A program made the translations under genes and the position numbers. A DNA stretch of 64,000 nucleotides from Escherichia phage vB_EcoM_ESCO10. Of the stretch, positions 1 through 1,715 are shown piece after piece. The stretch is taken from the sequence record OM386655.1. One strand, given 5' to 3'. The first letter of the stretch is position 1, and every line of letters starts with the position of its first letter. The notes below the pieces were generated by a model. That model ran no database searches and was not told where the DNA came from. It saw only the letters and a program-made list of their open reading frames with translations.

Positions 1-887
1 CTTACGCAGTTAACGAAGCCGTTGGACACGATGGAAGCCTATATTTCGCCACAGCTGAAAGCACCGGACAAACTCCTTCATTAGGTAGCGATTACTGGGA
101 AGTCTTAGCAACGGAAGGGCCTGAAGGTCGGCAGGGTGTCATGGGTCCGCAAGGACCACAAGGTATTCAAGGACCACAAGGTATTCAAGGTCCTAAAGGT
201 GATACAGGCGAAACTGGACTACAAGGTCTTAAAGGCGACAAAGGAGAGACAGGTTTAACCGGGCCACAAGGACTACAAGGACCTAAAGGTGATACTGGTG
301 AAACCGGTCCACAAGGACTACAAGGGCCTAAAGGTGATACGGGTGACAAAGGAGAGACAGGTTTAACCGGACCACAAGGTATTCGTGGTATTCAAGGTAT
401 TGCTGGAGTCCAAGGACCTAAAGGTGATAAGGGTGACAAAGGAGATACAGGTGCCACTGGTCCAGCCTACGAGTATAAAAAAGTATCTAGATTTGGAATG
501 CCTGCCGCGGGTATATCAATTTCTACTCCTTTATTCAATTCAGGATTAACAATAAATGTGGTAGGCGTCAAAACTGATACATTTAGATTTACCCTTACTA
601 ATACAGGTTCAGAGTCTAGAACTATTGATGGTGAACTAATTTATTTTGACCCGGATGGTGCAATAAAAAGATTTGTTGTTAATTTTTCAATAGCTGCAGG
701 TGCGACAACCAATTTCGGTTCGTACACGTATGCAATTACAACTCCCAGAGTTTTTACTTTAAATTTTAATGCTACTGGGACTATACAACACGCCCACGAA
801 GTAAAATATTTTGTAATAGGACGCTCTAGTTATACGGAAAATACTTCTGCTGGTGCTACTGTTACTATTGAAAAACTCTATAACTAA
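1..887 (+). CDS. collagen-like repeat protein, 5'-partial (ORF open to window start); ~40 Gly-X-Y triplets then ~140-aa beta-rich C-terminal domain
   Basis: frame open from nt 3; [19 protein letters not shown]... triplets approx nt 115-470; stop 885-887. Confidence 0.8.
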
Positions 888-896
888 GGACTACAA

Positions 897-1715
897 ATGG
901 CTATTACATTAAGTCCATCTTCAATAGACGTAGAATACGGTGACTCTTATACAGTCACTGCTAATATTCCAGATATTAGCCCTGGTTCATCTATTGTGTA
1001 TAACTGGACTAAGAATAAAAAATTTATTAGTTCCGGAACTAATGTATTCACTGAAATAGCATCATCGGTAGAAACATTAAGTATTGCGTGCCGAATTGAA
1101 ATTATATCACCGGATAAAAACACTGAATATATTTTATCGGATTCTTGCTTGGTTAATGTTAGTAAAAACACAAAAGCGGACGGTATAAATTCTCAGCTAG
1201 TTTATTCACCAGATGTTCATAAAATAGGTGACCAAGTTATTCTTTCTGTAGAATCCCGCCATGTAGACCCTGGCTATATTAAAGGAGTTATTTGGAAAGA
1301 TCCATCGGGTAATGTCGTGTCAATTGGTAAAGAATATACGCATAAGATTAAGACGACAGAAGATGTTGTAGATGTAAAAATAGATTTGGCTTCTGAAAAT
1401 TATGCATATTACAATAAAACACTTCAAATTGTTCTTAAAGCTATTGAAGAAGATAATTCGGAGTGTAGTGTAAGATATATTCATCCTTTAGACCACAGGG
1501 ATTCAGGATACATCTGGATGGGTTGGTGGGTTATGGACGAAATTGAAAGGGCAACGGTAGAAGGATTAAATTGGAAAGCGCCGGACGGTACTGACCTGAA
1601 GTATAAGTGCGACTTGAAAACTCTTTCTATAATGCTTGACTTATATAATAATGTTGAAGTACAAGAATCAAGGAATGGTTATATTCTAAACAGGGCAGAT
1701 TTACTTCCAAAATAA
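897..1715 (+). CDS. Hoc-like capsid decoration paralog (Ig-like region plus Hoc-type C-terminal capsid-binding domain)
   Basis: C-terminus YIHPLDHRDSGYIWMGWWVMDEI...VQESRNGYIL parallels C-terminus of hoc product at 1742-2845. Confidence 0.6.
   Translation: MAITLSPSSIDVEYGDSYTVTANIPDISPGSSIVYNWTKNKKFISSGTNVFTEIASSVETLSIACRIEIISPDKNTEYILSDSCLVNVSKNTKADGINSQLVYSPDVHKIGDQVILSVESRHVDPGYIKGVIWKDPSGNVVSIGKEYTHKIKTTEDVVDVKIDLASENYAYYNKTLQIVLKAIEEDNSECSVRYIHPLDHRDSGYIWMGWWVMDEIERATVEGLNWKAPDGTDLKYKCDLKTLSIMLDLYNNVEVQESRNGYILNRADLLPK

Follow-up and report, generated by a model that had tools for sequence, protein, structure and literature searches.

A collagen-fibre gene paired with a second Hoc gene in a VR5-like phage: a possible accessory adhesion module of the head surface

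Among dispensable capsid adhesins of the immunoglobulin (Ig)-like type, Hoc is the standard example, and it is much used as a platform for display. Beside the hoc gene of Escherichia phage vB_EcoM_ESCO10 (sequence record OM386655.1), at the start of the 64,000-nucleotide stretch that we analysed and call the window throughout, two further genes lie on one strand: the 3' part of a gene for a collagen-like fibre, and a gene for a second Hoc-like protein, here called Hoc2. What do these genes add to the virion, and on which part of it would their products sit? We favour, with a probability of about one half, an accessory module for adhesion at the head surface that adds two surface proteins to the virion. 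A first-pass annotation of the window had likewise proposed an extra capsid-decoration or adhesion module. The Hoc part of that proposal is solid, and the role given to the collagen protein is plausible, with circumstantial support from its pairing with Hoc2, from a hot-spot locus and from an anchor apparently related to that of a putative hexamer decoration protein of phage phiTE. The features of the pair are the following, in window coordinates.

3-887, plus strand: 3' part of the collagen-fibre open reading frame (ORF), 294 codons, with frame 3 open from the window edge
3-116, plus strand: C-terminal two-thirds (38 residues) of the inter-collagen knob, from the translation and its alignment with VR5, VR7, VR25 and VR26
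117-467, plus strand: collagen segment of 39 Gly-X-Y triplets (117 residues; residues 39-155 of the fragment), by Pfam Collagen
468-887, plus strand: distal domain of type A, 139 residues and stop (domain coding nt 468-884), all-beta in an AlphaFold2 model
886-896, plus strand: intergenic spacer, 9 nt, with AAGGA, by sequence inspection
897-1715, plus strand: Hoc2, 272 residues, by PHROG 1149 and T4 Hoc 5vf3_Z

Sequence comparison gives solid grounds for regarding Hoc2 as a true paralogue within the Hoc family. The profile search of the 897-1715 product against Hoc families, suggested in the first-pass annotation, returned PHROG 1149 (E 2.7e-57) as well as phrog_21694 (E 1.5e-15), and phmmer against the PDB aligned residues 164-268 with residues 263-366 of the solved T4 Hoc (5vf3_Z, E 2.7e-29). 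The signature by which the gene had been called Hoc-like, RYIHPL..R..GYIWMGWWVMDEI...VQESRNG, lines up with the resident Hoc, column by column, and the two genes are convergent as described (897-1715 on the plus strand, 1742-2845 on the minus strand). In T4, the contacts between Hoc and gp23 involve Tyr293, His295, Trp309, Trp310, the Arg357-Asp313 pair and the ESRNG loop (Fokine 2023, PMC10385173). Hoc2 keeps all the reported gp23-contact residues, as Y194, H196, W210, W211, D214 and E257-S258-R259-N260-G261, in a Hoc-type C-terminal capsid-binding domain (residues ~186-272; T4 counterpart, residues ~281-376). With these residues in place, Hoc2 would be expected to dock at the centres of gp23 hexamers as Hoc does. 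Because it should dock exactly as Hoc, heads would carry a mixture of the two proteins.

The remainder of Hoc2, from residue 1 to ~185, is the size of two Ig-like domains. As to the Ig-like repeats noted at first, residues 3-76 align with domain 3 of T4 Hoc (i-Evalue 3.4e-5); the Pfam Ig_2 match (E 0.0026) stayed under threshold. A two-sequence AlphaFold2 model shows beta-rich regions at 1-91 and 97-182 followed by a beta/two-helix domain, at a mean predicted local distance difference test score (pLDDT) of only 54. The C-terminal domains of Hoc2 proteins from VR5/VR7, VR25/VR26/KIT01 and Kosakonia 305 share ~60% mutual identity and 46-51% identity with canonical Hoc, and Hoc2 is ~30% identical to the resident Hoc. 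Since Hoc2 proteins are closer to each other than to canonical Hoc, they form a separate lineage of greater age and were not recently copied from the resident hoc; this lineage carries signature residues of its own in the C-terminal domain, such as YKCDL.T.

The collagen character of the fibre gene product is equally clear from its repeats, with Pfam PF01391 (Collagen) matching the fragment at E 3.6e-20 (71.9 bits against a cut-off of 27.2). The first reading of about 40 uninterrupted Gly-X-Y triplets is close to the 39 found at nt 117-467; this tract holds 12 prolines, every one at position X, and 24 charged residues. As the first-pass annotation recognized, the gene is 5'-truncated by the window edge, and its N-terminal anchor module (N-anchor), first collagen segment and the start of the knob lie outside the window. 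The VR5 orthologue, whose matching part is 88% identical to the window fragment, has 433 residues: it opens with the 33-residue motif TGEKEGVFYGYSLYDLNKEKLITFDELLTG, after which come 39 triplets, then a knob of ~50 residues, 32 triplets and a C-terminal domain. The Gly-X-Y repeat suggests a homotrimeric triple helix. A collagen triple helix rises 0.286 nm per residue, so the window's collagen segment would measure ~33 nm in that form and the full fibre ~60-70 nm.

Triplet counts vary even among near-identical phages. The second collagen segment has 39 triplets in the window, 32 in VR5 and 60-66 in VR25 and VR26; for the first, the count is 39 in VR5 against 50 in VR7. The collagen DNA also shows tandem periodicities of 9, 18, 45 and 90 nt. 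Because triplet counts differ in this way and the DNA is tandemly periodic, the pattern suggests that fibre length changes through repeat slippage or recombination.

The knob between the collagen segments resembles a CBM5/12 module at a level below the threshold for family membership. All eight knobs tested matched Pfam CBM_5_12 (PF02839) and no other family, each under the gathering threshold (best E 1.4e-5; VR5, 17.7 bits against a cut-off of 26.2), and the top PDB matches of a knob profile were chitin-binding domains of chitinases (7okr, E 9e-4). We rejected membership of the Lcl/Scl adhesins (NCBIfam), as those matches came from the collagen repeats alone and lay far under the cut-offs.

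Two published or assembled copies of the fibre gene are irregular. In VR7 the gene (ORF196w; L002 5424-6707) is frameshifted within the distal domain, and the tblastn match resumes in a second frame, giving two pieces with 100% coverage; the cause is either a mistake in the sequencing or the loss of function of a gene that is dispensable. In a VR5-like Logan contig (SRR22213611_37802, L007; 1845-2597) the gene is called as fragments of 54 and 129 residues over ~750 bp, most likely because the collagen repeats collapsed during assembly. An artefact of this kind may lie behind the scarcity of the fibre family in metagenome protein sets.

The C-terminal domain described at first as beta-rich and ~140 residues long has 139 residues and nine predicted strands, at low confidence: the AlphaFold2 model of this type A domain is all-beta with a mean pLDDT of 56.7 and its last third unmodelled, and only four homologues existed for the alignment. 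The domain is extremely rare. Using tblastn, we found it in VR5 and VR7 only among 50,697 phage records, an exhaustive HMMER scan recovered 3 proteins among 1.84 billion representatives, and a profile search with the domain gave no additional homologues. Foldseek with the low-confidence model returned Ptr ToxA and sandwiches of the MATH/TRAF type (template-modelling (TM) scores 0.4-0.54) and, against viral models, the distal portions of further phage proteins of the collagen-like or fibre kind, some of them named tail fibre. The likeness to C1q/TNF or BclA jelly rolls that the first-pass annotation had drawn is unsupported, with no such fold in the top 50 Foldseek matches to this low-confidence model, in Pfam or in PDB sequence matches. 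One segment (window ~627-773), which contains the conserved motif IDGE(L/I)IYFDPDG, weakly matches the cell-wall-binding or combined repetitive oligopeptide (CROP) repeats of Clostridioides difficile toxin A, which bind carbohydrate (E 0.001-0.007; residues 54-102 of a distal-domain query that starts at nt 462). This likeness may be merely a common beta-hairpin motif.

Across the fibre family at least four distal-domain types occur, and no significant similarity was found across types.

Type A: the window, VR5, VR7, P0002 and P0003
Type B: VR25, VR26 and Kosakonia 305
Type C: KIT01 and a 537-residue protein on contig L005
Type D: CR3 gp011 and LTH01

Types A, B and C are found in T4-like phages, and A and C are also found in Vequintavirinae-like contigs. 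The distal head varies independently of Hoc2, because KIT01 and VR25 share a Hoc2 type (93% identity) and yet differ in the type of distal domain. The same pairing led us to reject co-variation of the distal domain with the Ig part of Hoc2. An anchor that is conserved, a stalk of variable length and a head that can be exchanged together form a pattern typical of binders of variable external ligands, and the fibre may be such a binder.

Fibre and Hoc2 genes appear to be expressed as one unit. A Shine-Dalgarno-like AAGGA overlaps the fibre-gene stop and ends 6 nt ahead of the Hoc2 ATG, and no conspicuous promoter-like element of its own was seen upstream of Hoc2. The 9-nt spacer and the overlap of AAGGA with the stop suggest that the two genes are co-transcribed and translationally coupled. 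In VR5, VR7, VR25 and VR26, AATAAATA lies 22 nt before the fibre ATG and matches 7/8 bases of TATAAATA, the T4 late-promoter consensus, which neighbouring late genes carry upstream in exact form. The cassette operon is probably expressed late.

The pairing holds wherever we found the fibre gene in T4-like phages. A tblastn search of the 50,697 phage records with the N-anchor gave matches in just two groups, T4-like phages and Vequintavirinae. The six T4-like carriers fall in three genera: VR5 and KIT01 (Dhakavirus), VR7, VR25 and VR26 (Gaprivervirus) and Kosakonia 305 (Kanagawavirus). About 12 Vequintavirinae carry the anchor, among them CR3, CR8, PBES 02, POP15/17/18, SSBI34, A5-4, A7_1, LTH01 and UPEC06. 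In each of the six published T4-like phages the fibre gene is followed by a Hoc2 gene on its own strand, at a distance of 9-10 nt in VR5, VR25, VR26 and KIT01 and 29 nt in Kosakonia 305; the 127 nt of VR7 follow an annotated ORF shortened by the frameshift. The window and the collapsed contig L007 show the identical arrangement. When IMG/VR and metagenome contigs were scanned with the anchor, only Certrevirus-like contigs and phages already known came back, with no new T4-like carriers, and one candidate (L025) was discarded as an OmpA-like false positive.

In these T4-like carriers the fibre gene lies within the head-gene block, between gp24/rnlB/24.3 and hoc/inh, far from genes 34-38. The slot is a hot-spot for head-decoration genes, because in EcS1 it holds, on the same strand, two tandem Hoc-like genes 9 nt apart (L026 3074-4918). 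One of these, a 'tail protein' in RefSeq, is a plus-strand Hoc with ~4 Ig-like repeats as read by eye. The second EcS1 gene product, of 165 residues, has an N-terminal Hoc capsid-binding domain followed by an Ig-like segment, an inverted architecture as for PG7 (Fokine 2023, PMC10385173). Kosakonia 305 keeps the fibre-Hoc2 pair despite the loss of canonical hoc at the locus: between the Hoc2-type gene and inh (L011 8280-8641) only an 11-residue C-terminal remnant is left on the minus strand (E 0.009). Because the locus holds this remnant only, the Hoc2-type protein may be the sole Hoc of that phage, as judged at the hoc locus.

The cassette is an accessory insertion. The first-pass annotation had contrasted the locus with T4, where rnlB, 24.2 and 24.3 lie upstream of hoc; these genes are not replaced, as in close relatives they persist upstream on the strand opposite to the cassette, which sits between 24.3 and the hoc terminator. 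The absence of the module from T4 was confirmed, and sister Dhakaviruses lack it also: in IME341, for example, 24.3 is followed by a 420-bp spacer and hoc, with no gene between. Homology to the cassette-less Dhakaviruses restarts at window 1715-1730. The empty spacer of the IME341 type and the point at which homology restarts argue for insertion of the fibre-Hoc2 pair rather than replacement. From its absence in sister Dhakaviruses and its frameshift in VR7, the cassette as a whole is best regarded as accessory.

One clue to where the fibre would attach is its N-anchor. Contrary to the first-pass picture, in which a collagen stalk went with two anchors of the Hoc type, the collagen protein itself lacks a Hoc-type anchor. 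Its N-anchor also stands at the head of Vequintavirinae collagen proteins, CR3 gp011 among them, whose genes lie between the major capsid protein and the head-tail adaptor; it is ~55% identical between the two phage groups. At the CR3 locus and six more Certrevirus-like loci the gene order is constant: major capsid protein, a phiTE_214-like gene, a giant collagen gene with a Fibritin_C match, a phrog_4998 protein, a gene with a phiTE_217-type N-terminus, a gene with a VR5/CR3-type N-terminus, and the head-tail adaptor. No Hoc-like gene was present in the Vequintavirinae loci inspected, and phiTE itself lacks the gene with the VR5/CR3-type N-terminus. The first two genes after the major capsid gene have features of interest in themselves. 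One (L013 2853-3467) closes with a segment similar to the N-terminal part of T4 Inh (phrog_1051, E 5e-5; the record carries Pfam Phage_Inh_N), and the next (L013 3521-7309) encodes 1100-1260 residues of collagen repeats with a foldon-like Fibritin_C match (E 4e-6). Their phiTE counterparts, phiTE_214 and phiTE_215 (L010 5711-9685), are undiscussed in the phiTE structure paper (PMC11972413).

The neighbouring phiTE_217-type proteins are of interest because pTE217 has been assigned to the 'Pagoda' density at hexamer centres of the phiTE capsid (Hodgkinson-Bean et al. 2025, PMC11972413). Only the first 32 residues are common to phiTE_217 and CR3 gp010 (78% identity); beyond them CR3 gp010 is a short collagen segment, and pTE217 has no collagen. 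We compared the ~33-35-residue modules with hhalign, using VR5 and other orthologues. The VR5-type and pTE217-type anchors aligned over 34 collinear columns with a probability of 85.7% (P 5.4e-6) and a score of 26.0, which none of 600 column shuffles reached (8.6 +/- 2.0). On these values the fibre anchor appears to be related to the pTE217-type anchor.

In the reading that we prefer, the fibre would be a trimer of the length estimated above, fixed to the head by its N-anchor either at capsomers or via Hoc2. Its distal domain and knob would bind variable surface or environmental ligands, probably glycans, and the whole would serve as a long-reach adhesion device unnecessary for infection itself. 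The presence of the fibre in the virion, its attachment to the head, its trimerization and its ligand binding are all features that we infer. The head is favoured as its location because of the anchor relationship, the precedent of SPP1 gp12, the head-gene context in both phage groups and the coupling to Hoc2. Several points weigh against this reading. The hexamer centres are already claimed by Hoc and Hoc2, both RefSeq and PHROG label the fibre family 'tail fiber', and the N-anchor of the window's phage is taken from VR5, since its own lies outside the window. An HMMER profile of the N-anchor found no match to phiTE_217 or CR3 gp010, so that the link to these proteins is a single profile-profile comparison. 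The Pagoda assignment is itself putative, made from a very high mass-spectrometry abundance only and with the density unmodelled (PMC11972413). Moreover, T4-type gp23 and the phiTE capsid protein differ, and because the anchor is so similar between phages with unrelated capsid proteins the capsid lattice may not be what it binds, and its role could be trimer registration or the binding of something else. The Vequintavirinae slot directly precedes neck genes and holds the giant collagen protein with the Fibritin_C match, and neck whiskers would suit this slot equally well.

These last points feed a serious rival, which we hold to be possible if somewhat unlikely: the fibre could belong to the tail or the neck as an auxiliary appendage, in the form of a side fibre or a whisker, and Hoc2 could be an unrelated head decoration travelling along with it. 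Residues 1-286 match phrog_5073, which is labelled tail fibre (E 8.7e-58); a collagen shaft with a small distal head is typical of lateral tail fibres such as phi24B gp61 and the collagen proteins of E. coli prophages (PMC3368898); the Vequintavirinae homologues stand just upstream of adaptor and neck genes and beside the Fibritin_C-matching collagen protein; and the Foldseek-similar distal domains include those of proteins named tail fibre. Such names, however, apparently derive from collagen repeats, and we found no experimental backing for them. The T4-like fibre genes are tightly coupled to a Hoc gene inside the head-gene block, Pfam searches revealed no known domain for baseplate or neck attachment, and the 33-residue N-terminus has no Pfam match. 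The related anchor family has been assigned to the capsid, and the phiTE connector was reconstructed and described with no mention of whiskers. An unlikely alternative, to our mind, is that Hoc2 is a dedicated adaptor, whose C-terminal domain sits on gp23 hexamers while its Ig part or a lineage-specific surface holds the N-anchor of the fibre. Adjacency and orientation are invariant in the published T4-like carriers, with 9-29 nt between intact genes, Kosakonia 305 has retained the pair where canonical hoc was lost, and the Hoc2 lineage has its own signature residues in the C-terminal domain. That Hoc's C-terminal domain might display other ligands has already been proposed (Fokine 2023, PMC10385173). 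Against an adaptor stand the binding of Hoc as a monomer when a collagen fibre is a trimer, the 95-100% conservation of the N-anchor among VR5, VR25 and KIT01 while their Hoc2 Ig parts are ~32% identical, and the use of the anchor by Vequintavirinae with no Hoc-like gene in the loci inspected.

It is very improbable, in our estimate, that the fibre gene is a decaying or non-structural passenger in a recombination hot-spot and no virion component at all. The VR7 frameshift, the sporadic distribution of the gene and the rarity of the distal domain would fit such a passenger; intact ORFs of 433-526 residues in five other phages of three genera, the open 294 codons of the window, the conserved domain order and N-anchor, the late-promoter-like element and the tight coupling to a structural gene speak against it. 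A more elaborate picture, which we think rather improbable as a whole, combines several of these elements in a two-component modular head fibre: a Hoc2 adaptor in gp23 hexamers would carry a fibre of ~60-70 nm, about four times the length of Hoc, with anchors and heads drawn from a pool shared with Vequintavirinae and with deployment in the cold. Bacterial-type collagen without hydroxyproline melts near body temperature, and because of this the fibre might deploy only in the cold. Cold deployment would fit the carriers, which include the low-temperature VR phages and a phage of plant-associated Kosakonia.

The genes themselves are not new, and second Hocs have been published (Fokine 2023, PMC10385173). 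Fibre and Hoc2 are already annotated in VR5, VR7, VR25, VR26, KIT01 and Kosakonia 305; the VR7 record (HM563683) lists ORF196w as 'collagen triple helix repeat domain protein' and ORF197w as 'similar to T4 Hoc', and the RefSeq names are 'tail fiber protein' and 'Hoc-like head decoration'. In the literature searched, outside which the VR7 and VR genome papers lay, we found no description of a conserved fibre-Hoc2 cassette across three T4-like genera, of the sharing of fibre anchor and distal modules with Vequintavirinae, or of a relationship between the fibre anchor and the phiTE Pagoda family. Should a long collagen fibre accompany a second lineage of Hoc, heads of the T4 type may bear much longer and more modular adhesion devices than has been recognized. 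The common anchor with swapped distal domains suggests that two myovirus groups of enterobacteria, unrelated to each other, have exchanged modules for decoration or fibres. The RefSeq label 'tail fiber protein' is probably unfounded and could mislead host-range prediction. How much of this significance holds depends on the position of the fibre on the virion.

Sequence identity marks the source phage as a VR5-like Dhakavirus, because window 1-3600 is 96.8% identical to VR5 (96.2% to VR7) and a separate 20-kb stretch of the window is 94.6% identical to VR5. The features that follow Hoc2 are listed below.

1718-1737, no strand assigned: GC-rich hairpin AAAGGGCCgcaaGGCCCTTT with A/T runs on both sides, a predicted terminator common to the convergent Hoc2 and hoc genes
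1742-2845, minus strand: resident canonical hoc, 367 residues from the ATG at 2845 (PHROG 1149, E 1.9e-115)
2873-3556, minus strand: inh, prohead protease inhibitor and minor head protein (PHROG 1051, E 2.2e-89), as for inh in VR5 and VR7

The stops of Hoc2 and hoc are 26 nt apart, and the resident Hoc has 96-98% amino acid identity to the Hoc of VR5 and VR25. In a mechanically made ORF list hoc begins with the TTG at 2857; the annotation of relatives and the alignment place the start at the ATG at 2845. Beyond hoc the order is inh, then uvsW. An ORF of 231 residues (window 5106-5801, plus strand) lies between uvsW and uvsW.1, with two NUMOD3 motifs (Pfam, E 7.8e-12) and an HNH-like HHIIPSCIGG...EEHFIAH read by eye. 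Since uvsW.1 directly follows uvsW in VR5 and VR7, this ORF looks like a phage-specific insertion of a freestanding homing endonuclease.

Compared with known systems, Hoc2 is closest to Hoc itself. Like T4 Hoc, it places a capsid-binding C-terminal domain with gp23-contact residues after Ig-like domains, three in T4 Hoc and a putative two in Hoc2. It also recalls the second, shorter Hocs of Muldoon and PG7 in being a second Hoc within one genome (Fokine 2023, PMC10385173). Unlike the Hocs in that paper, from which the word 'collagen' is absent, Hoc2 always has a collagen-fibre gene ahead of it. The figure given there for the length of Hoc is ~18 nm (PMC10385173). BclA and C1q/TNF trimers share with the fibre the succession of collagen repeats and an all-beta C-terminal domain of ~135-140 residues, whereas its distal domain has no sequence match to either. 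The collagen-like lateral tail fibres of lambdoid and Stx phages, phi24B gp61 and the E. coli prophage collagen-like proteins (PMC3368898), resemble it in having a trimeric collagen shaft and a small C-terminal globular head, a putative receptor-binding part. They differ in their large N-terminal tail-attachment and coiled-coil domains and in belonging to tail modules, in contrast with the 33-residue anchor and head-gene block of the fibre.

Similar in organization are pTE217 of phiTE and CR3 gp010, which like the fibre have a conserved N-terminal module of ~33 residues followed by variable distal parts. Genes of the pTE217 type and the VR5/CR3 type are immediate neighbours in Certreviruses, although pTE217 belongs to another phage family with another capsid protein than the T4-like fibre carriers. 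SPP1 gp12, a further point of comparison, is only 64 residues long. In the accounts of Zairi et al. 2014 given by PMC5292684 and PMC7602432, gp12 is a trimeric collagen-like decoration at hexamer centres. As portrayed in those accounts, its collagen motif is short and its C-terminus helical, in contrast with the two long collagen segments, CBM-like knob and predicted beta-sandwich head of the fibre. Its collagen-like nature, its place on the capsid, its proposed role in adhesion and its dispensability for capsid stability, so far as these accounts present them, are the features to which we liken the fibre, from its genes alone.

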